NCBI GenBank assembly: GCA_964502615.1
Contig: CAZCXF010000004.1
Span: 7,199 to 71,198 of the forward strand
Length of the DNA stretch: 64,000 bases
Reading direction: 5' to 3'
From: an uncultured Candidatus Saccharibacteria bacterium
GTDB lineage: Bacteria; Patescibacteriota; Minisyncoccia; Phycocordibacterales; UBA9973
Shown here: piece by piece, positions 14,138 to 31,759 of the stretch
Layout of the letters: the number at the start of each line of letters is the position of its first letter
Position numbering within the stretch: the first letter of the stretch is position 1
The notes under the pieces: generated by a model
Database searches by the model: none
What the model saw: the letters and a program-made list of their open reading frames with translations, nothing else
Told to the model about the DNA's origin: nothing
Translations under genes and position numbers: made by a program

Positions 14138-14641
14138 TTAAGGGTTATTATAGCAACCTTTTTGAGTCTGGCTACCATTACCAACAGAGGACCCATCATA
14201 GGTACCACTACTACCCACACAATAATCATGTCCAGTTGGATTACTACCTAAATATACTGGTGTATTTAGACTAGTAGAAATAGAATATTTTTGAGAAGTA
14301 GGATTATTTGCACCCACGTAAAATCCTCCCGCCGAATCTTTAACAATTCGCTTACATACTGCTTGAGCATCACTTGCATAAGCACTAGAGGTAAATCCTA
14401 AATCACAATCCTGAGCAGTATAAAAATATGTTGCCGGAGACTCAATGTTTGCATAACTTCCGTTGTCAGCGTATTCTTGTAAAAGTATTTTTACAAACTC
14501 AGTGAATTCTCTTCTAACTGAGGCATCTTTTGCATTATTCCGTGCATTAGATGACATAGCCATTACTACACTTGCAAGTATTGCAATGATAGCCACAGCA
14601 ACAAGGAGTTCGATTAACGTAAAACCTTTTTGAGTTTTCAT
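14138..14641 (-). CDS. Type IV pilin / pseudopilin with an N-terminal prepilin cleavage-methylation motif
   Basis: 'KGFTLIELLVAVAIIAILASVV' is the canonical G|FTLIE class III signal peptide. 167 aa. Confidence 0.75.
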   Translation of the reverse strand: MKTQKGFTLIELLVAVAIIAILASVVMAMSSNARNNAKDASVRREFTEFVKILLQEYADNGSYANIESPATYFYTAQDCDLGFTSSAYASDAQAVCKRIVKDSAGGFYVGANNPTSQKYSISTSLNTPVYLGSNPTGHDYCVGSSGTYDGSSVGNGSQTQKGCYNNP

Positions 14642-14683: not shown

Positions 14684-15760
14684 CTAGTTAACTTCTTTTA
14701 TTTTATTTTTAATATCTTGTTCGAGATTTTTAACTTCTTTTAATTCTCCTATGAGACTAGCACTAGCAGATTCGAGTTCTGCTATTTCTTCTTCTAACTC
14801 ATTAATTTTACTTGTTTTTTGAGGATACCTATAAACAAAGTTTGCTCTTTTCTTTCTTAAGAAAATAAGGAGTAAGATAAATATTATAATTACAAGAGAA
14901 ATTATAACTATTGAGTTCATATTGCTTTTAAAATCAAAAGAAAATATGCCAGGGTTAATCTTTTCATTTGGTAAAGAAATCCATTTATCTATTATCTGTT
15001 GGTGTTCTTTTGCACTTATTTTTTGTAGACCTTTAGCTAATATAGAGCTCAATACAGTTTTATCTTTGGGTACGATAAAAGCCATTTTAGAATCAAGAGT
15101 AAGGCTACCAACCACTTTAATACTTCTCATTGATTGCTTTGATAATAGATATGTTAAAGATGCAGAATTAATAACAGTAGCATCTACTTCATTTAAGGCT
15201 ACTTTTTGTAATGCAAGTTCACCGTCTACAACTTCTTCTGTTATAACTCTTGGATAATTTTGTTTAATATAAGAAACAACCGGAGAACCTTTAATAACTG
15301 CTACGCTTCTATTATTGAAATCATCCAGTGTCATACCTTCGCGTGAGTCATAATCTTTGCGTACCGCTATAACTACCGGAAAAATTGCGTATGGTTCACT
15401 GAAAATAACCGGTAAATCTTGGTTTTTATCAATCTCTAGAGTCGATATATAGTCAACCTTAGGTTCGTTCATACTTAAGATTATGTCAGATCTGGTACGA
15501 GGAGTTATAAAATCAACTTTTATATCAAGCTTCTCGGCTACAAGTTTAATATAATCTACAAAAATTCCTTGTGATATATAAGAAGAATCATTGAATGAAA
15601 AAGGGGGGTTATTCCTCTCAGGAATAACAGAGATTGTATTATTCCTAGATGATAACCATATGTTTTCCTCACTACTTAGAAGATCTGATTGGGCGTTTGC
15701 GACCAAAAAAGGATTGGTAAAAAAAAGAGCTAATATAATATATATAGGGAATAATTTCAT
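14684..15760 (-). CDS. Secreted SBP_bac_3-like (family 3 solute-binding) domain, then a single TM helix and a short cytoplasmic coiled coil
   Basis: Signal peptide and ~250 aa periplasmic-binding-fold region. TM 'IVIISLVIIIFILLLIFL'. C-terminal heptad 'INELEEEIAELESASASLIGELKEVKNLEQDIK'. Confidence 0.55.
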   Translation of the reverse strand: MKLFPIYIILALFFTNPFLVANAQSDLLSSEENIWLSSRNNTISVIPERNNPPFSFNDSSYISQGIFVDYIKLVAEKLDIKVDFITPRTRSDIILSMNEPKVDYISTLEIDKNQDLPVIFSEPYAIFPVVIAVRKDYDSREGMTLDDFNNRSVAVIKGSPVVSYIKQNYPRVITEEVVDGELALQKVALNEVDATVINSASLTYLLSKQSMRSIKVVGSLTLDSKMAFIVPKDKTVLSSILAKGLQKISAKEHQQIIDKWISLPNEKINPGIFSFDFKSNMNSIVIISLVIIIFILLLIFLRKKRANFVYRYPQKTSKINELEEEIAELESASASLIGELKEVKNLEQDIKNKIKEVN

Positions 15761-15774
15761 GTTGTAATTATAAT

Positions 15775-16857
15775 TTAAGTTTCAATTTTTTTTATCTTCT
15801 CCTTTATATTTTCTTCAAGAGCTTTAACTTCATTTAATTCGTACATCAATCCCTTGCTTGTATCTTCAAGTTCAATAATTTCTTCTTTTAACTCCTCAAC
15901 TGCATCTAATTTAGCGTGCCTTCTTAGAGAAAAGTGTCCGTGCTTCTGTCTTAAAAGTAAAATTATTATTATAAAACAAAGAAGAATATATAATATTATT
16001 GTACTTAAATTACTCTTTACATAAGGTACAAAAGAACTTGCGGATTTTATTTCACTTGGTACTACTACCCATTTTTCTGTAATAACTTTACGATCATCAG
16101 TGCTTATTTGTTGCAATCCTTTATCTATAATTGATTGTAAGATTTCTTTATCTTTAGGAACTGCAAAAGATAGTTTATATTCAAATCCGGTACTTCCAAC
16201 GATCTTTACACTGTTTAGTACTTGTTTAGAGAGATAATATGACAGAGATGTTACATCTATAATTGCTGCATCAACTTCTCCCAATACTACTTGTTGTAAG
16301 CCTAGTTCATCGTCCGTCACAGATTCAATAACAACTCTTGGATTATTGGTTCTAACAAAATCTTCAACCGCATATTTACTACCAATAGCAACTTTTTTTC
16401 CAGTTAAATCGGCAAGAGTTAAATTACTTCCAATATCTATATCTTTCCTCACGACAATGACAGCGGGGCTCGTAATATATACATCAGAAAAATATAAAAA
16501 TTCACTTCGATCTTTAGTTTCTGACAGAGATGTAATAACATCACCTCTACTATCTTGTTTAACATCATCTAGGATCTGAGAAAGTGAGCGAGCTGGTAAA
16601 TACTCAATTTTGGCTCCCAACTTTTTAGCAACCATTTCAATATAGTCTATTGATAAACCCTGTGGGATTCTGGAAGAGGTTTGATATGAATATGGAGGAA
16701 AATTTTTCTCTGGATATACAACTATAGTGTTGTTACGAGACTTAAGCCACAAGTTTTCTTGGGGTGTTAATATATCACTATTAGCCATTATTATATTAGG
16801 GGAAATTGATATAAGGCCGAAAATACTTAGAAATACCAAGTGGCGGAATCTCTTCAT
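15775..16857 (-). CDS. Paralog of 14684..15760 (SBP_bac_3-like ectodomain + TM + C-terminal coiled coil)
   Basis: Collinear with its neighbour at ~40% identity, e.g. 'NLWLKSRNNTIVVYPE' vs 'NIWLSSRNNTISVIPE'. Confidence 0.55.
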   Translation of the reverse strand: MKRFRHLVFLSIFGLISISPNIIMANSDILTPQENLWLKSRNNTIVVYPEKNFPPYSYQTSSRIPQGLSIDYIEMVAKKLGAKIEYLPARSLSQILDDVKQDSRGDVITSLSETKDRSEFLYFSDVYITSPAVIVVRKDIDIGSNLTLADLTGKKVAIGSKYAVEDFVRTNNPRVVIESVTDDELGLQQVVLGEVDAAIIDVTSLSYYLSKQVLNSVKIVGSTGFEYKLSFAVPKDKEILQSIIDKGLQQISTDDRKVITEKWVVVPSEIKSASSFVPYVKSNLSTIILYILLCFIIIILLLRQKHGHFSLRRHAKLDAVEELKEEIIELEDTSKGLMYELNEVKALEENIKEKIKKIET

Positions 16858-16876
16858 AGTTTACATAATACCATAT

Positions 16877-18022
16877 CTATTCCCTTTTTTCAGCAGGAAC
16901 GGGAGATATTGGGGCTTGAGATAGAATCTTATCCTGACGCTCCAACTCATGCTCTGTAAGTTGTATTTTCTCTTCTTCTAGACCCATTTTACGTTTTAGG
17001 ATACGCATACGTCTTGATGAATACCAAGGTATAAAGTATATAAGCATTATCAAACCAACTATTGGTATAAGCAGTATTAGTATATTGATGAATATAATTA
17101 GTGCTTTTATGATTTTACTATCATTTACAAATAATCTGACCCCGAGTCCTGGCTTATTAATATTGTTGTCATTATCTACCAAAAATGGTGTTGCATTATA
17201 GACACCCGCAACTAGATTGTTAGGTGTAATATATTCAAATAATCCTTTGTCGTTGTTTTTAACCAAGACATCAGTTAGACGTTTCTTTTTGGATTGTATA
17301 AAGTCCATAAACTGCTCACCAAAAGACTTACTAGAAACTTCTTCAAAAGATAATTTGGTTAGGGCATTAGGTTCTCCTTTTCCTTTCAAATAAGCACTAT
17401 CCTTTGAAAGTACTGATTGCGAATATTCGGTTATCACAGGCAACGCCAGCAATTTATTATTATTTGTCTTAGCAATTGGCCTTATTAAGTCGAGAGCTCC
17501 AGAAGCTATAATATTAAAACTTGTAGAATTTAATCCATTTATTATATTAGTTCCGAGTCCATCATTTGCAAGTATTGATCCTTCATTAAAAGACACTGTT
17601 GCATTACCAGTCTTCTTAGCTTGAAATACTATGTGAAAAATACTACCTCCTTGTCCAGTGTATCCAGGATTTAATATCACTCCTTCAAAAGATATTTTAT
17701 TTCTACTAACATTTGGATCATGTGTCCATATATTCAAAATACTATTATCCCTTGAAATAGAACTTATTTGTATCAAATCCCCAGGGAATGTAATAGACCC
17801 TGAGACAGCGTTTATTGCTTGGTCTGGTGATTTAACTTTGACATCGATTGTTATATTTTCTCCTTCCGATACCGTCGTCTGAGATTTACTTAGAAAAAGT
17901 GATGCTTGGCCTGCATATACAGGAGTAGCAATAAATACTACTAATATTAGAACACTATATATTATAGTTCTTACGTAGTATTTCATCTTTTTCTTTTTAC
18001 CACAAAAAACAGAAAATAGCAA
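16877..18022 (-). CDS. Membrane-anchored surface protein with an N-terminal cohesin-like domain
   Basis: Signal/TM, then 'ISFEGVILNPGYTGQGGSIFHIVFQAKKTGNATVSFNEGSILANDGLGTNII' resembling the cohesin beta-sandwich C-terminal strands. C-terminal TM anchor 'IIFINILILLIPIVGLIMLIYF'. Confidence 0.4.
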   Translation of the reverse strand: MLFSVFCGKKKKMKYYVRTIIYSVLILVVFIATPVYAGQASLFLSKSQTTVSEGENITIDVKVKSPDQAINAVSGSITFPGDLIQISSISRDNSILNIWTHDPNVSRNKISFEGVILNPGYTGQGGSIFHIVFQAKKTGNATVSFNEGSILANDGLGTNIINGLNSTSFNIIASGALDLIRPIAKTNNNKLLALPVITEYSQSVLSKDSAYLKGKGEPNALTKLSFEEVSSKSFGEQFMDFIQSKKKRLTDVLVKNNDKGLFEYITPNNLVAGVYNATPFLVDNDNNINKPGLGVRLFVNDSKIIKALIIFINILILLIPIVGLIMLIYFIPWYSSRRMRILKRKMGLEEEKIQLTEHELERQDKILSQAPISPVPAEKRE

Positions 18023-18852
18023 GATATTAATATAATAAATACTCCTAGCAATTGAAGTGATGATAGCAAACCAGGTATCTCAACACTAGATTCTCTAATA
18101 TTACCATTGAAATCCAGAGCCCGGACAATGATTGATCTTTTTACTATTCCCTTTGATATCTCAAAAGGGCTCACAACATCCTTCCAATAGCTATGTGAAT
18201 CTTTTATTTGATATTTTTCTACTCCAGAAATAGTATCAGTAGTAAAGAAAGATATCATCGATGGCGTTTTAGAGAAAAATCCTGAAGGAATGTATTCAAC
18301 TACAAATGGTTCCGGTGGCTCTTTATCCCCGCTACTATTCTCAGTAAGATTTATTTTTTGATCTTCTGGTATGTTAATTAAAGTCGTTGCATTGTTTCTG
18401 ACATGGCCTAGGGGCGTTCCAAGGCCATCATTTTGTAGAATACTAGAATCACTAATAGTAAATTCACCTGTGCCATTTATTTTTGGAGAAAACAATAACT
18501 CAGTTATAGGTATAGGTTGTAATCCAACTTTATCAGGGTCATACAAGCCTTCAACTCCACCAGGAATAATCCCAGAAAAATGAATTTTACCTCCGTCATC
18601 TTTTGGAGTTTGAAGCCATAATTTTTTTATACCACCATCTTCTTTGTAACCTTTAAATACAAAAAGCTCTTTGGGATATTCTATTGTAATATCCATAGAG
18701 TTAACTGATACCCCTCCAGAATTTAGATTTACCAATACACTAAATTGACCTGTGCTTTCTATTTTATTTGGAGCAACAATAGAAACATCAGCTGCATATG
18801 CAACCAATGTACTACTTAGAAATATTGCAACTATTAGTAAAAAATTTTTCAT
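17983..18852 (-). CDS. Second membrane-anchored cohesin-like protein (paralogous domain)
   Basis: 'KIHFSGIIPGGVEGLY…GTGEFTISDSSILQNDGLGTPL' shares the 'IL(A/Q)NDGLGT' motif with the upstream protein. C-terminal TM anchor. Confidence 0.4.
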   Translation of the reverse strand: MKNFLLIVAIFLSSTLVAYAADVSIVAPNKIESTGQFSVLVNLNSGGVSVNSMDITIEYPKELFVFKGYKEDGGIKKLWLQTPKDDGGKIHFSGIIPGGVEGLYDPDKVGLQPIPITELLFSPKINGTGEFTISDSSILQNDGLGTPLGHVRNNATTLINIPEDQKINLTENSSGDKEPPEPFVVEYIPSGFFSKTPSMISFFTTDTISGVEKYQIKDSHSYWKDVVSPFEISKGIVKRSIIVRALDFNGNIRESSVEIPGLLSSLQLLGVFIILISCYFLFFVVKRKR

Positions 18853-18875
18853 ATCTTTATTATTTTAATAATACA

Positions 18876-19772
18876 TTAACCAGTCCAATAAAAAGCGAGA
18901 ATTGAAAAATCGACTAGATTAATAATATTGTCATTGTTAGTATCCACGCACCTTGGTGGGTTATCCTTACCATACCAGAAAGCTGCAACTGAGAAATCGG
19001 TAATGTTAATGACTTGGTCTGCGTTGCAATCTCCAGGAATATTGTTGGTTAGATCAACGCTTAAAATATTTGCTTCTCCTATTGTAAACTGAATTACTTT
19101 ACTTATTTTTTTATCATCATGATAATTGACGTGTAGATTGTAACTTCCCTTTTTAAATCCTAAGAGTGGTAAAACAAGTTTATATTTACCATCACTTCCA
19201 CTAGTTAGGTTGAATATCTTATTTGGAACTCCTTCTATGACAACATCTAAAAATTGGTTAGGTAATGAATAACCCAGTACTCCTAAATAATCACCTTGTT
19301 TTACTTCTGTCTTATCTGTAGCAATCGTTGGCGGGAAACGAATACCGCTAACCTGAGTAAGATAATCGATTTTTGCAACAATTGGATAATTAAGTAGGAT
19401 TGATTGCCTATTTGCTTTATCTATCGCATAAAGTGTATATAAGACATTTGATTTATACAATTCGCTAAAAGTTATACTAAAATATCCACTATTATCGGCA
19501 ACTGTGGTTCCTTTTGGGACTCCATCTTTCCATACGTGAACAGTAGCACCTGGATAAGCCCAACCAGAGAAAACAATTCCACTAAAGCGCCCACTATGAC
19601 ATCCACTACAATTATCATCAAGTGGTGTTGCGAAACCACCTACAGTTGCTGTAACAGATACATTTTCAGGAGAACTTACAATAGTAAAACCAAATACTGG
19701 TTGAATAGAAATCAGTAAAAAAAATATAAAGGAGATAAATTTTATAACATTTTTTTTATACATGATTGGCAC
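18876..19772 (-). CDS. Secreted protein with an Ig-like beta-rich body and a C-terminal type I dockerin-like double Ca-binding repeat
   Basis: 'DCNADQVINITDFSVAAFWYG…DTNNDNIINLVDFSILAFYW'. Both repeats match D-x-N-x-D-x3-N-x2-D followed by a hydrophobic helix. Confidence 0.6.
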   Translation of the reverse strand: MPIMYKKNVIKFISFIFFLLISIQPVFGFTIVSSPENVSVTATVGGFATPLDDNCSGCHSGRFSGIVFSGWAYPGATVHVWKDGVPKGTTVADNSGYFSITFSELYKSNVLYTLYAIDKANRQSILLNYPIVAKIDYLTQVSGIRFPPTIATDKTEVKQGDYLGVLGYSLPNQFLDVVIEGVPNKIFNLTSGSDGKYKLVLPLLGFKKGSYNLHVNYHDDKKISKVIQFTIGEANILSVDLTNNIPGDCNADQVINITDFSVAAFWYGKDNPPRCVDTNNDNIINLVDFSILAFYWTG

Positions 19773-20787
19773 CGTTTGGTGTATTCATACCAAGACGAGC
19801 CTTCTGTATAATATGTCGATTGTAACGTCGAATCAGTTTCTTACCACCCCAGAATACAATTATAAAGATAACAGCTAGACATATAAGCAATTGCCAAGGA
19901 AGTACGAAGAAGAAAACTGTCTCAGTTGCACGAGTTGCATTTGTACCATATAAAACATTTAATTTTGCAAAGTAAGGTCCAAAAGCATAGTTGTGCCATT
20001 CATAAAGTGCTTGATCAAAGAAATTAGCTATTAAACCAGTTGGAGCTATATAATCTTTTGATCTTGGTTTTTTAACCCAATCAACATTAAATTTTCGAGT
20101 ACTTTTAGGGAGTATATTTCCTCCACCTGGATTAGCATCAATAGTATCTTCTGGTATGTAAATTAAGTCATGCATTTTTATCTTACCAACTGGTTTTATT
20201 CTGTCTCCTCCATCATTTTTAAAACGATAACTAAAAGATACTGGTAATGTAGTATAAAAGATTTTTTTATCTTTCATTGAGAAATCAAGTAGTCCTCCCT
20301 CTTCTTTCACATCTCCGTTAACCGATAGCAATATCAATATTCCAGCTCGAGCACCGATTGAAAGTCCTGCCCCTTCTGTATCTGGAGTCGTACTCCAAAA
20401 TATTGCAGCGAAATGTCCTCCTGGCTCAGCGTTTTTAGGAATATTAATATGGAAGTTTAAAGTTTTAGATTCTTTAGGTTTTAAAGTTACAGAAGAATCT
20501 GTAGTCATCCAAGTTCCTAGATCTTCTTTAGCATTAACAAATGAAGGGTTACCAGATTCTCCAGAAGCTTCGAAGTTAGCAAATGAAGAGTAATATGTGA
20601 TTAGACCATCACTTTCATTAGTAAGGATTATTTCTTTAGTAATAGACTCACCAGGATTACCTGTAACTTCTATTCTTACGGGAGAAAGTGTAATAGCATA
20701 CGCACTACCTCTAAACCCAAGGAACAAAGCAAGGGTTAGAACCAAGAAGGTAATCTGTCTTCTTTTGTTGAAGTAAGTACGAGTCAT
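19756..20787 (-). CDS. Secreted, C-terminally TM-anchored Ig-fold protein (DUF916/CscA-like or PapD-chaperone-like)
   Basis: Signal peptide. 'ITLSPVRIEVTGNPGESITKEIILTNESD' resembles the first strand motif of pilus chaperones and DUF916. C-terminal TM 'LLICLAVIFIIVFWGG' plus a basic tail. Confidence 0.4.
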   Translation of the reverse strand: MTRTYFNKRRQITFLVLTLALFLGFRGSAYAITLSPVRIEVTGNPGESITKEIILTNESDGLITYYSSFANFEASGESGNPSFVNAKEDLGTWMTTDSSVTLKPKESKTLNFHINIPKNAEPGGHFAAIFWSTTPDTEGAGLSIGARAGILILLSVNGDVKEEGGLLDFSMKDKKIFYTTLPVSFSYRFKNDGGDRIKPVGKIKMHDLIYIPEDTIDANPGGGNILPKSTRKFNVDWVKKPRSKDYIAPTGLIANFFDQALYEWHNYAFGPYFAKLNVLYGTNATRATETVFFFVLPWQLLICLAVIFIIVFWGGKKLIRRYNRHIIQKARLGMNTPNGANHV

Positions 20788-20797
20788 TAAATTTAGA

Positions 20798-22009
20798 TTA
20801 GAATGTAGCAGTTGCTATAAATGTAAGAGTGTCGGCGTAGTCATTGTGAGCAGGAACAGCGCCGCTTATTGAAGCATTAACTGCAACCTGAGCACGACCA
20901 CCTGCAAGGAGACCGGATGATGAAACCATGTTATCTCCAGTTGTAGTTAAACCTTTAACATCGTTAGTACCACCATCTGCTGCACATGTACCAGCGTTGT
21001 AAGGTGCTGCTTTTGAAAGAGTTCCCGTTGTTTGAGTTACAGATATAACACAAAGACCATAGTTTGTTGTGTTTGTAGCCATTGCTGCAGCTGTGTTTGT
21101 AATCTTATCTGCAGGAGTCGAAGTAGACACTAAACCGTTTGCACCATTTGCATTTTTAACAGTCACCACTACTCCACTAGGAGCATTTGTATCAAGGTCC
21201 ATCATTATTCTATTAATACCATCAGTTGCTCCAGAAACTTTAACGTCTGATGTACTTAAAGATCCAAGTGGTACATTGTATGGTGCACTAGTATTTTCAC
21301 TACCAGCTGTACCTACGTCTAGATCAAAAGTAAGTGTAGAATTAACTGTCGCAGTAACATTTACTTGGTCATCATCTACTATACCGTAAGCAATTTGACT
21401 TGAGTGTGAATTAACGAATGTTGTAAAACAAGCTGCTCCAGATTGTTCGTCACACATTTTAAAGTCAATATTTGTAGCAGCAACAGATGAAGGATTTGTA
21501 AGTACTCCTGTACCTCCAGTCTCACCCTTTATTGTAAATGTAATAGCTGAGGCAGTTGAGGAAGAAGTAAAAGTTGATGCAGGTTTAACAGTAAAAATTA
21601 AATTTGTAGTATCTATTGCGACACACACACTTTGAGCAGTAGTAGCAGTACAAGTAATAGTACCTGCACCTGCAGACACAGCATCTATAGTGTGAGAACC
21701 GTTACTATCAGAGAAAGCAAAGTCAGATGTTTGCCATGTTCCACTTTGAGAAAAGGTTGCAGGAAAGTCTACTTGAAATCCATCAAGATTACCTCCTGTT
21801 ACATCAAAGTCTACTCCAGTAGGCATTGTAAATGTTACAACATGGTCTGCATTAGCACTTATTTTAAGACGAGTTGCTGTATCTTTTGATGCAGTAAAAC
21901 TCGCAGCAGTTGCCAATTGTGGACCAAATGAATAAACGACTATAAGTGCAATTGTTAGAAAGGCACTTAAAAATTTAGAGAACGTAGATTTTATAATGTG
22001 TGTGCTCAT
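20798..22009 (-). CDS. Secreted Thr/Ser/Ala-rich beta protein ending in a Csu/SCPU-pilin-like (or WxL-like) C-terminal strand 'AHNDYADTLTFIATATF'
   Basis: Signal peptide. The C-terminal motif resembles the CsuA/B terminus 'GDYKDTLLVTVNF'. Confidence 0.45.
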   Translation of the reverse strand: MSTHIIKSTFSKFLSAFLTIALIVVYSFGPQLATAASFTASKDTATRLKISANADHVVTFTMPTGVDFDVTGGNLDGFQVDFPATFSQSGTWQTSDFAFSDSNGSHTIDAVSAGAGTITCTATTAQSVCVAIDTTNLIFTVKPASTFTSSSTASAITFTIKGETGGTGVLTNPSSVAATNIDFKMCDEQSGAACFTTFVNSHSSQIAYGIVDDDQVNVTATVNSTLTFDLDVGTAGSENTSAPYNVPLGSLSTSDVKVSGATDGINRIMMDLDTNAPSGVVVTVKNANGANGLVSTSTPADKITNTAAAMATNTTNYGLCVISVTQTTGTLSKAAPYNAGTCAADGGTNDVKGLTTTGDNMVSSSGLLAGGRAQVAVNASISGAVPAHNDYADTLTFIATATF

Positions 22010-22125: not shown

Positions 22126-23217
22126 TTAAAAGGTCCCTGTGGCGATAAAGGTCAATGTATCTGCATAATCATTATGGGCTGGAGTCGAAGTACTATTTTC
22201 TGCATTTACTCTAATTTCTGACCGTCCACCAACAATACCAGATGATACAGTAAGAATATTCCTAGATGTATTATCAACTAGACCAACCGAATTAACGTGT
22301 CCACTTGTGCATGGTGATCCATCATAAGGATTTGCTTTAGTTAAAGTACCTCCTGAAGATTGAGTAACTGAACCGACACAGAGTCCATATCTTGCAACAT
22401 TGGGAGCCATTGTTCCAGTAGTTGATGGAATTGAATCAGTAGGTACAGATGTTGATTTTAGAGCACCATTCTTAGATAAAACTGTAACAGCTGCACCACC
22501 AGATGCATTTGTATCTAAATCTACCCATATAGAATTTATAGTACTATTATCAGAATTGCTTGCCTGGGCTGTCGACAATGTACCGAGAGCTACATTATAT
22601 GGAGCAACTGTATTAGTATTTGAAGTAGAAGTATCAATATCAAATGTAATGGTCTGAGGTATAACAGTTGCGCAAACTTTTCTTGTGTATGCAGTTGTGT
22701 TCCCTACTGTTGCATTATCAGCTGGGTTTGCAGGATTTCCAATCATAGAAAATAAAGTTGTATCGTAACCAGTGCAGTTTGTATCTTGATAAGCAATAGT
22801 TATAGTATCGTTTCCAGCTGCATCAGATAAACATGCACTTTGTCCATACGTGTTAACACTTGTTTCCTGTACGTGAGCATTTGTTACAGCAGATAGTCTT
22901 ACAATTCTCTGAAAATTTCCAGAGCAAGAATTCCCAATAGCTGAAACGCTACTACAACATACAACATTGCCGTCATAATTTGCATTTGATTGACTCGGAA
23001 GTTCTGCGTGAGCATTTGTCGAACCTGACATGCGAAGTAATGTAGTGAAACCACTTGTATTACAAGATGACTGTGATACTACGTTGCAAGAAAGCGCCGC
23101 ATATATACGCGAAACTGGATAAAGAGCCGACACAACAAAAACGATTATTAATATAAAATTAAAACGTTTTGTCTTTAAGTGGCCCTGTTGTTTTTTCTGG
23201 TACTGGTGGTGGTACAT
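22126..23217 (-). CDS. Paralog of 20798..22009 (identical C-terminal 'AHNDYADTLTFIATGTF'); the true start is probably an internal Met
   Basis: Shared blocks 'APYNV(P/A)LG(S/T)LST', '(M/V)DLDTNA(P/S)', 'YGLCV…VTQ' and the same C-terminus. The 5' end overlaps 23159..23677. Confidence 0.45.
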   Translation of the reverse strand: MYHHQYQKKQQGHLKTKRFNFILIIVFVVSALYPVSRIYAALSCNVVSQSSCNTSGFTTLLRMSGSTNAHAELPSQSNANYDGNVVCCSSVSAIGNSCSGNFQRIVRLSAVTNAHVQETSVNTYGQSACLSDAAGNDTITIAYQDTNCTGYDTTLFSMIGNPANPADNATVGNTTAYTRKVCATVIPQTITFDIDTSTSNTNTVAPYNVALGTLSTAQASNSDNSTINSIWVDLDTNASGGAAVTVLSKNGALKSTSVPTDSIPSTTGTMAPNVARYGLCVGSVTQSSGGTLTKANPYDGSPCTSGHVNSVGLVDNTSRNILTVSSGIVGGRSEIRVNAENSTSTPAHNDYADTLTFIATGTF

Positions 23218-23677
23218 CTTTTTTATTATTTATAGGAGCGACTTCAATAATTTTATCTATACTTGGTCTATACAAAACGGCCTTACCAGCTTCTGTAAAA
23301 ATTAGTACTTTGTCGTCTTTCTGAGCACCTGAGAAGAAAGCTTGGTCTTTTAATTTTACTGGATCAGATACAGTAGCTATAGTAGGTTCTTCTCCAGTGG
23401 GTATTAGATATAGTTTTGCCACTTTACCTAACAAATCTTTTGCTTCTTTTCTAGCACCTTCTTGAGTGCTCTTTTCTAGATTGTGTAATTTATAGTAAAA
23501 ATACGCGCTCAGAGCGACTGCAACTATTAGAATTATGAATATAACCATATTAAGAAACTTTTGTTTGGTCATGGAAGATCTTTTTTTAACGATTTTTGTT
23601 GCAAAAACACTATCTTGTGATTCATATAAGTCAGAATCATCTGATTTACTATTCCGGAAGTCAATAGACATAAACAT
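23159..23677 (-). CDS. Hypothetical single-pass membrane protein
   Basis: TM 'FLNMVIFIILIVAVALSAYFYY'. No homology recognised. Confidence 0.35.
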   Translation of the reverse strand: MFMSIDFRNSKSDDSDLYESQDSVFATKIVKKRSSMTKQKFLNMVIFIILIVAVALSAYFYYKLHNLEKSTQEGARKEAKDLLGKVAKLYLIPTGEEPTIATVSDPVKLKDQAFFSGAQKDDKVLIFTEAGKAVLYRPSIDKIIEVAPINNKKDVPPPVPEKTTGPLKDKTF

Positions 23678-23734: not shown

Positions 23735-24982
23735 ATGAGGGAAGTGAACAAAAATAAGCCAAAAAAGTGTTTAATTTGTAATAGCTATAATCTAGCCCTT
23801 TATCTTGATCTAGGTCAAACAGCCTTGGCAAACTCTTTTTTGAAGAAATCTGACTTAAAGAAAAAAGAATCCAAATTCCCTCTTAAAGTATATTATTGTA
23901 AAGATTGCCACCTTGCTCAGCTTGGCCATATTGTAGATAGAAAAGTCTTATTCCAAAAATATGCCTGGTTTTCATCTGCATCCCCCCAACTTGAAAAATA
24001 TTTTGAAAAATACGCAAAGAACGTATATAGTAGATTCCCTAATCAAGCTAAAAAATATGTATTTGAGATAGCAAGTAACGATGGAATTCTTTTAAAATAT
24101 TTTAAAAAGTTAGGTGTAGAAGTTCTTGGTATTGATCCTGCTAAAAATATTGCCCGCGTTGCAAACAAAAACGGTATAAAAACTTTACCAGCATTCTTCA
24201 ACTTAAACTCAGCTAAAAAAATTTCAAAACAATTCGGCAAAGCAGGTATAATATCTGCCAACCATGTCATCGCTCATGTAGATGATCTGCACAATATAAT
24301 GAGTGGGGTTAAAGATTTGTTAGACGAAAACGGAGTTTTTGTATTTGAGGTGCAATATCTAGGGGACTTAATTAAATACAACGAATTTGACAATACATAT
24401 CATGAACATACTTTTTATTTTTCTTTATCACCACTAATAACTCTTTTAAGTAAACACAATCTATCTATATTTGATGTAGAAGAAGTAGAAGCTCAGGGTG
24501 GATCTATCAGAGTATATGCGAGCCACTCTTCTTCCATGTTACCAAAAAGCAATAATGTAAAAAGGATTTTAACTAGAGAAAAAAATCGGGGTTTGTATAA
24601 ATTAAAAACATATAAAGACTTCAGTAAAAAACCAGAAACAATAAAAAAAGACTTGGTGGAATTATTAAGTAGATTAAAAAAACAAGGGAAAGTTATAGTA
24701 GGTTACGGAGCATCAGCCAAGGGTAATACTCTCCTTCAATACTCTAATATAGATAAAAAATATATAGACTATATAATAGACGACGCGCCTATTAAACAAA
24801 GTAAGTTTACTCCTGGAACACATATACCAATATTTGCTTCAAACCAATTAAAGAAAAAAACTCCTGATTATATACTTATACTTTCTTGGAATCACGCGAA
24901 GTCAATTATGGAAAAAGAATCTTGGGTTAAAAAGAGGGGTGTAAAATTTATATTACCAGTTCCTAAAGTAAAGATAATATGA
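23735..24982 (+). CDS. SAM-dependent sugar C-methyltransferase of the TylCIII/NovU type (zinc-ribbon + methyltransferase + C-methyltransferase C-terminal domain)
   Basis: N-terminal 'CLICNSYNL…CKDCHLAQL' zinc ribbon typical of Methyltransf_13/14 dTDP-sugar C-methyltransferases. 415 aa. Confidence 0.7.
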   Translation: MREVNKNKPKKCLICNSYNLALYLDLGQTALANSFLKKSDLKKKESKFPLKVYYCKDCHLAQLGHIVDRKVLFQKYAWFSSASPQLEKYFEKYAKNVYSRFPNQAKKYVFEIASNDGILLKYFKKLGVEVLGIDPAKNIARVANKNGIKTLPAFFNLNSAKKISKQFGKAGIISANHVIAHVDDLHNIMSGVKDLLDENGVFVFEVQYLGDLIKYNEFDNTYHEHTFYFSLSPLITLLSKHNLSIFDVEEVEAQGGSIRVYASHSSSMLPKSNNVKRILTREKNRGLYKLKTYKDFSKKPETIKKDLVELLSRLKKQGKVIVGYGASAKGNTLLQYSNIDKKYIDYIIDDAPIKQSKFTPGTHIPIFASNQLKKKTPDYILILSWNHAKSIMEKESWVKKRGVKFILPVPKVKII

Positions 24983-25791
24983 AGAAAAAGTTAAAAATAT
25001 TAGTCACAGGAGGAAGTGGGATGGTAGGAAGCCAAGTAAAATTTGGTATAAAGCCAAGCCATAAGGAGCTTGATATAAATAACTCTACATCTATAGAAAA
25101 AGCTGTAAAAAAATACAAGCCAGATGTCATACTACATTTAGCGGCTTTTGCAAATATGCTCGGTTGTGAAGGAAGTAAAATAAAAGCGAAAAAAATAAAT
25201 GTTACAGGAACACAGAATATAGCTCGTGCCTGTAAGAAAAACGACATGAAGCTAGTCTATATGTCCACTTGTGCTGTCTTTGATGGTAAAAAGAAAACAC
25301 CTTATAAAGAAAGTGATCGAGCTAAAACCTTAAATGTATACGGCGAAACAAAACTTGGGGGTGAAAAAATTATACAAAAAATACTTCCGAATGCCTTGAT
25401 AGTACGCACGGGCTGGCTATTTGGTGGCAATAAAACTGATAAAAAGTTTGTGCAACTAACTTACCAAAAATTTAAGAATGGTGAGGAGGTAATGGCAACA
25501 TCCGATCGAAAAGGTTCGCCTACATACGTGAAAGATTTATTGGATACAATAGAAAAATTGATATACCAAAACAAAAGTGGAATATATCATGTAGTAAATT
25601 CTGGTACTGCTTCATACGCTGATATTGCAAAAGAAATCAAAAAAGTAGGTAAATTTAAACAAGAAATCAAGAAAGTTTTGGCGCGTGATATAGAAAATAA
25701 AAAACTAAAAAGGGGTAAGAATGAATCTCTTGCTTCTTCAAAAATAAAATTAAGATCTTGGAAAGTTGCCCTAAAAGAGTATCTTAACTAG
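24979..25791 (+). CDS. dTDP-4-dehydrorhamnose reductase-like NAD(P)H sugar reductase (RmlD family)
   Basis: 'ILVTGGSGMVGS', 'YMSTCAVFDG', 'PYKESD', 'NVYGETKLGGE', 'IVRTGWLFG', 'SDRKGSPTYVKDL', 'YHVVNSGTASYADIAKEI'. Confidence 0.75.
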   Translation: MKKKLKILVTGGSGMVGSQVKFGIKPSHKELDINNSTSIEKAVKKYKPDVILHLAAFANMLGCEGSKIKAKKINVTGTQNIARACKKNDMKLVYMSTCAVFDGKKKTPYKESDRAKTLNVYGETKLGGEKIIQKILPNALIVRTGWLFGGNKTDKKFVQLTYQKFKNGEEVMATSDRKGSPTYVKDLLDTIEKLIYQNKSGIYHVVNSGTASYADIAKEIKKVGKFKQEIKKVLARDIENKKLKRGKNESLASSKIKLRSWKVALKEYLN

Positions 25792-25792
25792 T

Positions 25793-25821
25793 TTGACTTT
25801 AAGTCAAAAATATGTTATAAA
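25793..25821 (+). promoter_or_regulatory. Sigma-70-like promoter TTGACT-17 bp-TATAAA for the DUF218 gene; the -35 lies in the 16-bp perfect palindrome TTTGACTTAAGTCAAA
   Basis: Seen in sequence. The downstream gene has a GGAGGTG SD and a TTG start at 25894. Confidence 0.35.
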
Positions 25822-25893
25822 ACAAACAAGACATAAACATACATTCATATCTACCCTTCTTAACTGATGGGTATACAAAGACGGAGGTGAACA

Positions 25894-26589
25894 TTGAAAA
25901 ATATAATTAATCGCCTAAAGAATAAGATTCTAACGGCAATCCAGTCATCTGCAAAACGCATCGATCTGCAAATCAAGCTTTCGCTTATGATTATGAGCGA
26001 TAGGCCAACCAAACAAGTTGATGTTGCTTTGCTCTTTGGCCGAGCCAATGGAGATGACAACAATAATTTTTTTGGTCTTGTGGTTTACCTTTACAAGATT
26101 GGTCTCATAAAGAATATCTTGATAAATGGATCCCGTGGAGAAAGACAAGGCAAAACAATTCCTGGCGAAAGCTGGGCTGGTGGTGAAGTCTGGGCTGACA
26201 GGTTGCAAAAGCTAGGTATAAGTAAGAATGCAATTCACTTCTTTAAACCTGCTTATAATACTGCAGATGAGGGAAGAAAAATGCTTGCTTATGCTAAAAA
26301 GCAGGGATGGAAAACTGCGGTTTCAATAGCACAACCACACCAGTTGCTTCGTTGTATAGCAGGATTGGTCCGTTCTATGAAAACAGAGGAGTATCCGATG
26401 CGTGTATATTCAGCTGCACCACAGAGTGTAGATTGGTTTGAAAAATGTGCTGGTTCACAAGGACTATATGATATGCCTCGGCATGATCACATTGGGCTTG
26501 AGTATTCCAGAATCCAGCAGTACGTTTTTGATCTTGCTACGCTTGGTCAGGTCTTTGAGTACTACCAAACCCGTGAGTTAATCACGTAA
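25894..26589 (+). CDS. DUF218 / YdcF (ElyC/SanA-like) family protein
   Basis: 'NTADEGRKMLAYAKKQGWKTAVSIAQPHQLLRCIA' matches DUF218 'NTxENA…VTSxxHMxRA'. Confidence 0.65.
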   Translation: MKNIINRLKNKILTAIQSSAKRIDLQIKLSLMIMSDRPTKQVDVALLFGRANGDDNNNFFGLVVYLYKIGLIKNILINGSRGERQGKTIPGESWAGGEVWADRLQKLGISKNAIHFFKPAYNTADEGRKMLAYAKKQGWKTAVSIAQPHQLLRCIAGLVRSMKTEEYPMRVYSAAPQSVDWFEKCAGSQGLYDMPRHDHIGLEYSRIQQYVFDLATLGQVFEYYQTRELIT

Positions 26590-26612
26590 AAAATAGAATC
26601 TTATTTTATTTG

Positions 26613-26660
26613 CCCCCAGATTAGTTTGTTTATAAAACAGACTGATCTGGGGTTTTTTTA
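26613..26660. terminator. Bidirectional rho-independent terminator (CCCCAGATTAGT…ACTGATCTGGGG + T7) between the convergent DUF218 and gtrA-like genes
   Basis: 12-bp stem with one mismatch, flanked by an A-run and a T-run. Confidence 0.6.
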
Positions 26661-27067
26661 TTGAACACAAACTTCTCGTATACAAAAAAGTTCCAACATG
26701 CAAGAATTGCTAAAGTAAAAACTTTTGAGAGCATTTTGTCGATATGTAATATTTCTACAAAAAAAAGCATTAATAATATATTTATACCGAGATTCACCAT
26801 TGATACTAAGAAAAAAAGAATTGCTTGTTTCTTAGTCTCACTCTTACTAGTATTTTGAAAAGTAATATACTTCTGCAAATAGAACCCCACAAAAACTGAA
26901 AGCACAAAAGATGTTATCGATGCTAATAAATACCAAACATGAAACCAATTTAAAAATATATAAAAAAGTACTAGATTAGATAAAGCTGCTGTTCCTCCAG
27001 CTAGTATAAATAGTATTGCTTTATATATTTTTTTATTTAGCATTGAGCCTATTTTTGTAAAATTCAA
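26630..27067 (-). CDS. GtrA-family membrane protein (polyprenyl-phosphate-sugar flippase-like)
   Basis: 145 aa, 4 TM. 'LFILAGGTAALSNLVLFYIF…YLLASITSFVLSVFVGFYLQKYITF' is typical of GtrA. Confidence 0.75.
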   Translation of the reverse strand: MNFTKIGSMLNKKIYKAILFILAGGTAALSNLVLFYIFLNWFHVWYLLASITSFVLSVFVGFYLQKYITFQNTSKSETKKQAILFFLVSMVNLGINILLMLFFVEILHIDKMLSKVFTLAILACWNFFVYEKFVFNKKTPDQSVL

Positions 27068-27998
27068 AAGTCTTCTTTATCCCCTCTTCAAAATTAGTTT
27101 TGGCCTTGAAGCCTAGCTCATCTCGAAGCTCATCTGTATTTATAGAATATCTAAAGTCATTTCCCTTTCTGTCTGGTACATATTCGATACTAGATTCATC
27201 CACTCCTCCCAGTGCTAGTATTTTATCTGTAATCTCTTTATTAGTCAGTTCGTTGTTGGCACCTATATTATATATTCCCCCCGATACTCCTTTGTGGAAA
27301 ATTATATCAATAGCTTCTACATGATCCCCTACATATATCCAATCCCTTACATGTTCACCTTTTGCATGAAGTGGAACTTTCTTACCTTCAAGCAAAAGTT
27401 TTATAAACTTAGGTACCAACTTTGTATAATCTTGATTGGGACCATAATTATTTGTACATCTAGATATTATTGTATCTAAGCCATACATTTCATGATAAGT
27501 GCGCACGATCAAATCGGCAGAAGCCTTTGATGCACTATATGGATTATTTGGTAAGAGAGGTGAATTTCTATCAAAAGATTTATCGCCGATTTTTAGTGAT
27601 CCATAAACTTCATCCGTTGATATCTGGAAAAATCTATTAATTTTATATTTGCGAGCAAGTTCAAGCAAGTTGTGAGTACCTAAAATATTTGTCTCTATAA
27701 ATAGTCTCGGGTCTTCGATACTTGCGTCTACATAACTCTCTGCAGCAAAATGTATTATGTCAGTTATCTGATAAAGGGAGAATATTTTTTCAAGTGAAAC
27801 AGTATCTCTTATATCTACTTTCTCAAACTTATAATTCTCTTCTTTATCTACCGTGACATTCGCAATATCTCCTGCAGAAGTTAGGCAATCGATATTTATA
27901 AAAAAGTAATTCTTATATTTAGGTACATAAATATTTAGGAAATTACTCCCTATAAATCCCATGCCTCCTGTGACCAAAATTGTTTTATCGTATTTCAT
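27033..27998 (-). CDS. rfbB: dTDP-glucose 4,6-dehydratase
   Basis: 'ILVTGGMGFIGSNF' and 'YSASKASADLIVRTYHEMYGLDTIISRCTNNYGPNQ' catalytic YxxxK. 321 aa. Confidence 0.9.
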   Translation of the reverse strand: MKYDKTILVTGGMGFIGSNFLNIYVPKYKNYFFINIDCLTSAGDIANVTVDKEENYKFEKVDIRDTVSLEKIFSLYQITDIIHFAAESYVDASIEDPRLFIETNILGTHNLLELARKYKINRFFQISTDEVYGSLKIGDKSFDRNSPLLPNNPYSASKASADLIVRTYHEMYGLDTIISRCTNNYGPNQDYTKLVPKFIKLLLEGKKVPLHAKGEHVRDWIYVGDHVEAIDIIFHKGVSGGIYNIGANNELTNKEITDKILALGGVDESSIEYVPDRKGNDFRYSINTDELRDELGFKAKTNFEEGIKKTFEFYKNRLNAK

Positions 27999-28004
27999 AG
28001 GTTA

Positions 28005-28745
28005 CTATTTGTGGAAAAGTTTTGTCTTAAAGCCCAGTTTCGCCAAAACATAATAGAATAATACTCCAAAAGTAGCAAATGCGTAAACAATGCTTCTTTT
28101 TATACTTATAGATGTATGTTCTTTCATATATAGTCCTCTGACTGGTACTTCTCCTATTTTGAATTTTTTATATACGATCTGAGCAATTATTTCAAAGCTA
28201 AATAAATAGTCATTAGAAGTATGGGTTAAATCTACACTTTGTATTGACTCTTTGCTATATACTCTTGCTCCAGTGTGGAGCTCGCTAGTACGAACTCCTA
28301 AGATTATCCGATCAATAAAAGTAAGAGATAGGTTGGCTATATATCTTATTAATGGCATCTTATCTTTGAGTGGTTGCCTTAAATCTGTAAATCGTGACCC
28401 AAGCACTAAACCATAACCATTTTTTATTTTTTCAAGTGCGGGTTTTATAAAAGATATATCATACTGACCATCACCGTGTATTTCTACTATATAATCTGCT
28501 CCAAGTTCAAGCGCTTTATTCATCCCGTATTTCATATTACCTCCATAACCAAGCTTAGGATGAGAAAAACATTTGATTCCAAGTTTCTTGGCAACTTCTT
28601 CAGTATTATCTCCAGATTCATCATTTGTAATAAATACTTCATCGAGTACGTCCATTGGAAGCTTTTTTTGTAAATCTTCCAAAAAATTTGCACACTTATA
28701 TGTAAGGATTACTCCTATTACTTTTTTATGATTATTTATTTCCAT
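28005..28745 (-). CDS. Family 2 glycosyltransferase (polyprenyl-phosphate sugar synthase, GtrB/Dpm1-like)
   Basis: 'VIGVILTYKCANFLEDL…ITNDESGDNTEEVAKKLG' GT-A DxD-region motifs. C-terminal TM. Confidence 0.75.
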   Translation of the reverse strand: MEINNHKKVIGVILTYKCANFLEDLQKKLPMDVLDEVFITNDESGDNTEEVAKKLGIKCFSHPKLGYGGNMKYGMNKALELGADYIVEIHGDGQYDISFIKPALEKIKNGYGLVLGSRFTDLRQPLKDKMPLIRYIANLSLTFIDRIILGVRTSELHTGARVYSKESIQSVDLTHTSNDYLFSFEIIAQIVYKKFKIGEVPVRGLYMKEHTSISIKRSIVYAFATFGVLFYYVLAKLGFKTKLFHK

Positions 28746-30792: not shown

Positions 30793-31759
30793 ATTCCTTA
30801 TAGATTACTCCTGAAAGATCTTGGATTATTTTAGTTAGATCATTAAAATCATTACCTCGAGTCATTATACATATGAGATAAGGATTTTTAGGATAGTAGA
30901 CTATGCCACAATCATGTAGTTGTTTTTTGTTGTTAGGTAGATCGGAGCGTTCTCCGAATTTATGCGCAACTTTTAAATTTTTAGGAACTCCTTTTATTAT
31001 GCCATCATTAAAATCAGTATCACTTAATATAGATAAGGCTTTTTCAGATGTCTCTTGTTTATTGAAGAATGAAGAGTGGAAAAGCTGAGTAAATATACCT
31101 GCGTATGATTTAACTGTTACAGTTTGGTCATAGTCATTTTTGGGGTCTACAATACCCAAATCTACATCTGTTTCAAGCAATAAATCTTCTTTAGGACTAG
31201 CAATACTCAAATATTTTAAGAGGCCAAAATACGCACGGTTGTCAGAATACTTTATCATTCTTCTTAAGAGGTCATCTATTGAGTATTCTACGTCTTCCTG
31301 TATTAACGCTTTCGGAGAAAAAAATTGTTCTGAATAGTCCTCTATTTTAGGAAAGGCTATTTTTCTATCTAGGAAATTATCATGCCTATCTTCGTTAATT
31401 CTAAGATATGTTATAAGTAAGGGTAATTTTAGAAGACTAGCGGGAGAAAATTGTATATGTTCATCTATGCCCATTGTTGGGCCATTTATAAGGTCACGAA
31501 AATATATTGATACATTATCGGCTTTTTTTTCTGCAATCTTTGTCGCAATCATATTCTCTAGGTCATTTTTTAATTTTATATAGTTACTTTTATTAACTAC
31601 ATATTTTTGCATACATTTTAGCTTTGGGTTTATATGTTCAAATTTGGAAGAAACACAATTTTGACTATTATTTATTGAACTGCTAGTAAAAAACCCAGCA
31701 AAAAAAATGATGGTAAATAAAAATAACTGTAAGATTATTCTTTTAAAATTCTTACTCAT
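30773..31759 (-). CDS. Secreted class-A beta-lactamase-fold serine hydrolase (PBP/beta-lactamase-like)
   Basis: SxxK 'PASLLK', SDN 'YSDN' and a KxG-like 'HKFGE'. Signal/TM N-terminus. Confidence 0.5.
   Translation of the reverse strand: MSKNFKRIILQLFLFTIIFFAGFFTSSSINNSQNCVSSKFEHINPKLKCMQKYVVNKSNYIKLKNDLENMIATKIAEKKADNVSIYFRDLINGPTMGIDEHIQFSPASLLKLPLLITYLRINEDRHDNFLDRKIAFPKIEDYSEQFFSPKALIQEDVEYSIDDLLRRMIKYSDNRAYFGLLKYLSIASPKEDLLLETDVDLGIVDPKNDYDQTVTVKSYAGIFTQLFHSSFFNKQETSEKALSILSDTDFNDGIIKGVPKNLKVAHKFGERSDLPNNKKQLHDCGIVYYPKNPYLICIMTRGNDFNDLTKIIQDLSGVIYKEFDSRKL

Follow-up and report, generated by a model that had tools for sequence, protein, structure and literature searches.

A conserved cohesin-dockerin gene set of Patescibacteria, read as a probable non-cellulosomal surface assembly

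The stretch of DNA considered here (64,000 nucleotides of contig CAZCXF010000004.1, from an uncultured bacterium; "the window" in what follows) carries three adjacent genes, the first encoding a secreted protein that ends in a dockerin and the other two encoding membrane-anchored proteins that begin with cohesin modules. A preliminary description of this DNA, made from its letters, had proposed a source among the Patescibacteria (the Candidate Phyla Radiation, CPR), and the database relatives of its proteins agree. Dozens of related species have these genes in an unchanged order, and the trio is for that reason probably a plug-and-socket assembly of the cell surface. In our view the locus encodes a cohesin-dockerin assembly of the cell surface that is not cellulosomal and is conserved throughout the Paceibacteria/Parcubacteria branch of the Patescibacteria; we would put the probability of this reading at roughly two in three. 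What is directly established is the identity of the modules, the topology of the membrane anchors, the lack of catalytic domains and the fact that one dockerin gene is linked to two cohesin genes throughout the lineage. The trio and its modules are laid out as follows:

18876..19772, minus strand: dockerin-bearing secreted protein, an open reading frame (ORF) of 298 amino acids
18879..19037, minus strand: dockerin module of that protein (PGD...YWTG), 53 amino acids, two F-hand segments of 22 residues with a 7-residue linker between them
18996..19031, minus strand: calcium-binding loop 1, DCNADQVINITD, read from the DNA
18909..18944, minus strand: calcium-binding loop 2, DTNNDNIINLVD, read from the DNA
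17983..18852, minus strand: cohesin protein 2, 289 amino acids
18373..18792, minus strand: cohesin module of protein 2 (residues 21-160; structural model and Foldseek)
16877..17986, minus strand: cohesin protein 1, 369 amino acids from the ATG at 17986
17501..17911, minus strand: cohesin module of protein 1 (residues 26-162 of the 369-residue form; structural model and Foldseek)

All three ORFs of the preliminary description are present on the minus strand where it had placed them, and the peptides that it quoted (DCNADQVINITD, DTNNDNIINLVD, ISFEGVILNPGYTGQGGSIFHIVFQAKKTGNATVSF, ILANDGLGT and ILQNDGLGT among them) are read again from the DNA. Its statement that the cohesin genes lie upstream of the dockerin gene has to be reversed: because the genes are on the minus strand, both lie downstream of it as transcription proceeds. 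In public gene calls the dockerin gene begins with the ATG at 19763 (295 amino acids). The reading frame of cohesin protein 1 is open as far as a TTG at 18022 (16877..18022, 381 amino acids); database versions begin at the ATG at 17986. The genes are tightly packed, with junctions that either overlap or are spaced by 19-23 nt: the stop codon of the preceding gene (g343, below) overlaps the start of the dockerin gene, 23 nt separate the dockerin gene from that of cohesin protein 2, and the stop of the latter overlaps the start of the cohesin protein 1 gene as ATGA. A consensus scan found promoter-like sites to be no commoner than in shuffled sequence and turned up no convincing terminator between the genes of the operon; in so AT-rich a genome, a scan of this kind is little informative.

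The dockerin protein consists of a signal peptide, a Gly-rich linker, a Big_6 immunoglobulin (Ig) domain, a second Ig-like domain and the C-terminal dockerin. The Big_6 match of the window protein (29.3 bits) exceeds the Pfam cutoff, Big_6 is found in all 36 members of the family that were scanned, and the family profile also finds the Ig domains of Bap in the Protein Data Bank (PDB; 7dm0, E = 4e-5). That the C-terminal module is a dockerin, as originally proposed, is borne out by a duplicated pair of calcium-binding loops that is unique in the window, by family-level matches to Dockerin_1 (PF00404) and by profile matches to solved dockerins. The strict loop motif D.N.D...N..D occurs exactly twice in the 39,849 residues of the window's six-frame ORFs; both copies lie in this protein, 29 residues apart (residue shuffles yield a mean of 0.01). 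PF00404 is matched by 30 of the 36 relatives at E <= 0.01 (best, 6e-7), and the family profile retrieves 2y3n_B (E = 6.2e-5), 5nrm_B (E = 0.013) and 2vn5_B (E = 0.56).

Type I dockerins are built as a tandem repeat of a segment of about 22 residues, in which a helix comes after a 12-residue calcium-binding loop with D/N at positions 1, 3, 5 and 9 and D at position 12, and the module of the window has this build. Conservation follows the same lines. The duplicated F-hand pattern is kept in 56 of 59 sequences (58 orthologs from the loci described below, and the window's own), and in those 56 the residues D1, N3, D5 and D12 of both loops are 100% conserved. Loop 1 is followed by FSVAAFWYGK and loop 2 by FSILAFYWTG; across the family the two helices are nearly identical, FS[VI]LAF[WY][YW], and the linker between the segments is always 7 residues long (xNPPxCV). 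P246, G247 and D248 are invariant in the 36 family sequences; a Gly directly before D1 (position 0) is highly conserved in dockerins (PMC3821032). The dockerin is the best-conserved part of the protein, at 73% identity versus 43-47% in the Ig domains. It also carries a pair of Cys residues, C249 (position 2 of loop 1) and C275 (residue -2 before loop 2; numbering of the 298-residue ORF), which come and go together: both are present in 42 orthologs, neither is present in 13, and there is no sequence with just one. This pattern suggests a disulfide between C249 and C275. The ectodomains of the cohesin proteins contain no Cys. (The 13 sequences that lack the pair may represent one clade.) No catalytic or carbohydrate-binding domain is found on the dockerin protein or its 36 relatives, in which the Pfam matches are confined to Ig-like domains (Big_6, CarboxypepD_reg, Big_13); judged by its domains, the dockerin protein is non-catalytic.

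The two cohesin proteins share a plan. Each has a signal peptide and an N-terminal cohesin; in protein 2 these are followed by an FnIII/PKD-like domain, a C-terminal transmembrane helix and a KRKR tail, and in protein 1 by a second beta domain, a transmembrane helix and a conserved cytoplasmic helix. (The second domain of the 289-residue protein is taken to be of the FnIII/PKD type; its matches, to a chitinase and to a ColH (collagenase) domain, are weak.) AlphaFold2 models of both proteins were made from alignments of their families, with a mean predicted local distance difference test score (pLDDT) of 78 for the 369-residue protein and 88 for the 289-residue protein, the N-terminal domains scoring about 85-95. 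The predicted structures present the nine-stranded beta-sandwich (jelly-roll) of the cohesin fold. Foldseek matches both proteins to cohesins at target template-modelling (TM) scores of 0.70-0.77 and about 3 A: for protein 1, 2vo8 at 0.77, and for protein 2, 2vo8 at 0.77 (2.9 A) and 2vn5 at 0.74 (2.8 A). Type I and non-cellulosomal cohesins fit better, type II cohesins scoring lower (0.5-0.6), and the best matches are cohesins of Clostridium perfringens enzyme complexes. The preliminary description had seen a resemblance to cohesins in these N-terminal domains and had named structure prediction as the way to check it; both domains come through that check. Its signal peptides and C-terminal transmembrane helices likewise agree with the models, which have helices at residues 2-20 and 291-355 of the 369-residue protein and at 2-13 and 265-288 of the 289-residue protein: both are single-pass proteins, anchored at the C-terminus.

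Sequence comparisons at the family level concur. PF00963, the Pfam Cohesin family, is matched by 5 of 35 sampled relatives of cohesin protein 1 (E <= 0.01; best, 5e-7), relatives of the 369-residue protein at 87-88% identity bear precomputed PF00963 assignments, and so do distant relatives of the 289-residue protein; the matches of the cohesin family profiles to PDB sequences are marginal (E = 0.4-0.9; 5aoz). The two modules are paralogs, whose hidden Markov models (HMMs) cross-match at E = 1e-13 to 1e-24. Residues that are invariant in the families of both paralogs comprise an N in strand 3, W/P in strand 5, G-x-x-x-P-G in strand 6 and L-x-N-D-G-x-G after strand 8; those of cohesin protein 2 lie on strands 3, 5, 6 and 8 and in the 8/9 loop. 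Strands 3, 5, 6 and 8 make up the 8-3-6-5 sheet, which we take to be the dockerin-binding face of type I cohesins, as in the 1OHZ complex. That the modules are what they are called here, dockerin on one side and cohesins on the other, is hardly open to doubt.

One further feature of cohesin protein 1 lies at its other end. The transmembrane and juxtamembrane segment (16922..17116, minus strand; residues 291-355) is the best-conserved region of the protein (mean identity, 0.52), with W321, Y322, S323, M327, E337 and E338 invariant, which hints at contacts in the membrane or cytoplasm beyond simple anchoring.

How widely is the arrangement distributed? The preliminary description had proposed a survey of related genome bins for conserved synteny, and its outcome is strongly positive. 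Searching one genome per species for relatives of the dockerin protein found 59 loci (31-67% identity), in genomes that are essentially all from Patescibacteria (labelled Paceibacteria, Nomura-, Vogel-, Taylor- and Kaiserbacteria, Parcubacteria and Minisyncoccia); a lone "Bacteroidia" bin probably reflects a mis-binned contig. At least two cohesin genes directly follow the dockerin gene, on the same strand, in 52 of the 53 loci with more than 2.2 kb of downstream sequence, and a single locus has just one such gene. Where more than 4 kb of upstream sequence is available (42 loci), g343 precedes the dockerin gene in 36, a gene of the g363/g403 type in 32 and g172 in 30; a gene for a solute-binding protein of the SBP_bac_3 family comes after the cohesin genes in 31 of 47 loci. 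The usual order is accordingly g172, one or two proteins with a shared C-terminal domain (g363 and g403 in the window), g343, dockerin, cohesin 2, cohesin 1 and solute-binding protein; gyrB often comes next, and a giant protein is often encoded upstream. One divergent clade (L051, L052, L054, L056, L060 and L061) has one to three copies of g172, the dockerin gene and three cohesin genes, and is without g343 and the genes for the shared C-terminal domain; that it keeps dockerin and cohesins all the same marks these as the separable, invariant core. The "two-component, minimal" system of the preliminary description is too narrow a view of the locus: the conserved operon comprises 7-8 surface genes, and the trio makes up its 3' end. 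Within the window, the family HMMs find exactly one dockerin and two cohesins.

The neighbours of the trio are these:

23159..23677, minus strand: g172, small protein with an N-terminal transmembrane helix; first gene of the conserved cluster
22126..23217, minus strand: g363, secreted; paralog of g403
20798..22009, minus strand: g403, secreted; shares its C-terminal domain with g363
19756..20787, minus strand: g343, WxLIP-like membrane protein, 343 amino acids; subthreshold match to WxLIP_PGBD
15775..16857, minus strand: SBP_bac_3 paralog with C-terminal transmembrane helix and coiled coil
14684..15760, minus strand: SBP_bac_3 paralog with C-terminal transmembrane helix and coiled coil
14138..14641, minus strand: type IV pilin-like gene (N_methyl motif, E = 2e-10), between the solute-binding protein genes and gyrB
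31763..43093, minus strand: giant ORF of 3,776 amino acids, with a Gly-rich stretch and C-terminal repeats of the PPADNTQPPTDGGSN type

The protein encoded by g343 has a signal peptide and ends in a hydrophobic transmembrane segment followed by basic residues; its matches to Ig/Fn3-like Pfam families point to two beta domains. It scores 22.4 bits on WxLIP_PGBD, below the cutoff of 27.3 bits, 17 of 31 relatives match that model, and the only PDB matches are to EfmWxLIP1, at E of about 0.9; HBD (DUF3324) is not matched. Its transmembrane segment and cytoplasmic tail are highly conserved (FFFVFPWQLL...GGKKLIxRYNR). The domain that g403 and g363 have in common is about 190 residues long, 53% identical between the two, and ends in HNDYADTLTFIATxTF. 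An HMM search of the full library finds it in 509 representative clusters, always at the extreme C-terminus, in proteins that range from about 230 to 2,955 amino acids (the shorter entries look like fragments); one of them carries an RCC1 propeller as its passenger. It has no Pfam match in 46 family members or in 8 relatives from a deep search, and its profile finds no PDB sequence even at E <= 10. Its identification with the WxL domain was considered and is not supported (there is no WxL motif, no match to Pfam WxL and no PDB match): by analogy, it looks like a Patescibacteria surface-anchoring domain that is WxL-like in its C-terminal placement.

Downstream of the trio, the two tandem solute-binding paralogs match SBP_bac_3 at E = 2e-21 and 2e-18; a transmembrane helix and cytoplasmic coiled coil at the end of such proteins is unusual. 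The pilin-like gene was seen at only one of the related loci (L004). The giant ORF stands out by its GC content (0.41-0.43, versus about 0.33 in its surroundings) and has no Pfam match; considered as a possible further carrier of cohesins or dockerins, it was rejected, since the family HMMs found none in it and Pfam nothing. Its relatives lie directly upstream of the cluster in L001, L012, L015, L025, L027 and other loci. In the window about 8 kb of genes on both strands (23735..31759) separate it from g172; because the giant gene and g172 are adjacent in L001 and L012, this segment looks like an insertion. By eye its contents suggest sugar modification or glycosylation (methyltransferase-, epimerase/dehydratase- and glycosyltransferase-like genes), together with a large polytopic membrane protein.

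How might the trio work? After export by the Sec pathway the dockerin would fold on binding Ca2+ and plug into one cohesin or both, at the 8-3-6-5 sheet; such Ca2+-dependent docking onto the adjacent cohesin proteins is what we infer from the sequences. The Ig-domain protein would thereby be tethered non-covalently to the cytoplasmic membrane and project through the wall, and the near-identical halves of the dockerin would let it bind in a dual mode or select one cohesin over the other. As a rule, the trio would act inside the larger cluster, in the company of g172, the two secreted proteins with the shared C-terminal domain, the WxLIP-like protein and the membrane-tethered solute-binding protein. 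Most likely the trio builds or anchors a structure at the cell surface that serves adhesion or contact, a host cell being one possible partner; degrading polysaccharides is not its role. A bolder version, which we regard as a long shot, has the dockerin bridge the two cohesin paralogs by binding a different one on each of its near-identical faces simultaneously, and so clamp together a heteromeric transmembrane complex. Together with the WxLIP-like protein and the solute-binding protein, the conserved transmembrane and cytoplasmic segments would in that case make up a trans-envelope device specific to the Patescibacteria, which would sense or hold the host cell. Bridging, if true, would put cohesin-dockerin chemistry to a new use, that of dimerising proteins outside the cell.

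Several observations weigh against the reading of the locus as a docked surface assembly, and they are collected here. Taken alone, the window's dockerin protein scores 17.0 bits on Dockerin_1 (E = 0.0068), below the cutoff of 22.9 bits (this subthreshold match still covers profile positions 1-53 of 57), and neither window cohesin protein matches PF00963 in a single-sequence scan. The Pfam searches that had been suggested for these genes consequently split: Dockerin_1 is positive for the family and negative for the window protein by itself, and Cohesin is negative for the window proteins. Single-sequence Pfam and NCBIfam scans of the whole trio yield no cohesin match and a dockerin match that is subthreshold only; family profiles and structure prediction are required for the assignments because single-sequence matches are subthreshold or nil. 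The 7-residue linker and the Cys pair are atypical. In a canonical dockerin the two Cys positions are expected to be far apart; because the pair cannot be reconciled with that geometry, the fold of this dockerin may deviate from the canonical one. Gly, Pro and Trp account for many of the residues that are invariant in the cohesins, and such residues could be structural rather than part of an interface. Mutual information between the dockerin and each cohesin, calculated over 51 paired loci, is dominated by columns that mark clades (the Cys pair, for example); it gives no interface signal and is uninformative on that point. The count of one dockerin and two cohesins is for the 64-kb window. And the assignment to adhesion or host contact is pure inference.

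Some of these same points give room to a different account: that the modules are genuine and the adjacent proteins are nevertheless not partners, the dockerin binding a cohesin or other ligand that is encoded elsewhere, or that resides on a host cell or in the wall, and the two cohesins capturing other dockerin proteins. (In a variant of this account, the dockerin would be a "mere" Ca2+-stabilised structural cap.) The scope of the module count and the silence of the covariation analysis leave room for such an account, and many non-cellulosomal proteins carry dockerin-like modules with no known partner (a category cited in PMC13487519). It has to contend with gene order: dockerin, cohesin, cohesin, with overlapping genes, in 52 of 53 loci and down to 31-36% identity, an association that survives where the remainder of the cluster changes; the window's ratio of one dockerin to two cohesins also fits it poorly. 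We consider it unlikely. One might instead make the whole cluster the unit: a WxL-like wall complex in which the WxLIP-like g343 anchors the two proteins with the shared C-terminal domain and the trio is an accessory or regulatory tether, its transmembrane and cytoplasmic segments perhaps coupling it to the solute-binding protein in a signalling or uptake function. The size and architecture of g343, the subthreshold WxLIP_PGBD matches of 17 of 31 relatives and EfmWxLIP1 as sole PDB match all point that way, as do the two secreted paralogs, whose C-terminal domain, occurring in small and large proteins, mirrors the "two WxL plus one WxLIP" pattern (PMC10599100); so do the transmembrane and tail segments of cohesin protein 1 and g343, which are among the best-conserved parts of these proteins, and the solute-binding protein gene that stands downstream in 31 of 47 loci. 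Yet no similarity to WxL domains or to any Pfam or PDB entry can be detected in the shared C-terminal domain, every WxLIP score falls below threshold, and the divergent clade retains dockerin and cohesins in the absence of g343 and the C-terminal domain proteins, which implies that the trio can function independently. As a replacement for the surface-assembly reading this is improbable; it overlaps that reading rather than excluding it.

The preliminary description had spoken of a "cellulosome-like" assembly, and cohesin and dockerin modules are, after all, the hallmark of cellulosomes. Could this be a genuine cellulosome or amylosome in minimal form, with a scaffold at the surface that displays polysaccharide-degrading enzymes and so captures nutrients? 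The best structural matches do include cellulosomal type I cohesins. A cellulosome is, however, defined by a scaffoldin with at least two cohesins together with a dockerin-fused glycoside hydrolase (PMC13487519), and the locus has neither: each cohesin protein has a single cohesin, the dockerin protein has Ig-like domains only, there is no glycoside hydrolase, carbohydrate-binding module (CBM) or catalytic domain on it or on its 36 relatives, and the window holds no further dockerin. With no carbohydrate-active enzyme (CAZyme), CBM or multi-cohesin scaffoldin at the locus, the cellulosome reading was rejected; it is already largely refuted, and the chance that we attach to it is very slight indeed.

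GenBank names relatives of these proteins automatically, as "cohesin domain-containing protein" or "dockerin type I domain-containing protein"; the entries for the window's own proteins read "hypothetical protein". A full-text literature search found no paper that describes a cohesin-dockerin operon in Patescibacteria, CPR or Parcubacteria. What is new here is the combination of single, transmembrane-anchored cohesins with an enzyme-free cargo, a fixed 1:2 ratio of dockerin to cohesin genes, a compact dockerin with a Cys pair, and a trio embedded in a conserved surface cluster. Specialists in cohesins and dockerins would not find their expectations overturned; they would find the uses of these modules extended to membrane-helix-anchored, enzyme-free assemblies in ultra-small bacteria. 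The Patescibacteria make up a large share of bacterial diversity, and most are thought to live attached to other cells; to our knowledge, their surface molecules are almost wholly uncharacterised outside the Saccharibacteria. The locus bears on this poorly known CPR cell surface and, because the biochemistry of its components is well understood, it is directly testable. It also flags, next door, an uncatalogued family of C-terminal surface domains (the 509 clusters).

Among known systems, the WxL/WxLIP clusters of Firmicutes resemble the locus in its upstream half only. We know of no description of such clusters with cohesin or dockerin genes. They encode two WxL proteins and one WxLIP protein, the latter composed of DUF916 (PGBD), DUF3324 (HBD) and a transmembrane helix in 337-365 amino acids, and the likeness is limited to the size and architecture of g343 and to a C-terminal domain shared by small and large proteins (PMC10599100). 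In contrast to those clusters, there is no WxL motif and no match to Pfam WxL in g363, g403 or their relatives; because neither Pfam WxL nor any PDB sequence is matched, the resemblance of the upstream genes is one of analogy, not of demonstrated homology.

The downstream half has counterparts of its own. The glycosidase and toxin complexes of C. perfringens (cohesins 2vo8, 2jh2 and 2w1n; complex 2ozn) are non-cellulosomal cohesin-dockerin tethers. There the modules belong to large secreted glycoside hydrolases and join one enzyme to another, whereas neither partner in the window is an enzyme, the cohesins are anchored by a C-terminal transmembrane helix and the genes form a fixed operon. OlpA and OlpC of Clostridium thermocellum (3ul4, 4dh2) are, like the cohesin proteins of the window, single-cohesin surface anchors; they pair with type I dockerins. 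They are held in the wall through SLH repeats and bind cellulosomal enzymes; the window proteins are anchored by a transmembrane helix instead, and their cargo is a pair of Ig-like domains. The minimal system of Cellulosilyticum lentocellum is similarly very small, one single-cohesin protein and one dockerin protein, but its dockerin is fused to a functional cellulase of glycoside hydrolase family 5 (GH5) and its cohesin protein bears a CBM (PMC13487519), where the window has no CAZyme and no CBM. In the broadest sense the window cohesins belong with the non-cellulosomal cohesin of Archaeoglobus fulgidus (2xdh); cohesin and dockerin proteins that are non-cellulosomal and mostly non-catalytic are a recognised class, according to PMC13487519, which cites Peer et al. 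2009. What sets the present type apart from A. fulgidus and the wider class is its constancy: a lineage-wide operon of one dockerin and two (sometimes three) transmembrane-anchored cohesins, in at least 59 species of Patescibacteria.

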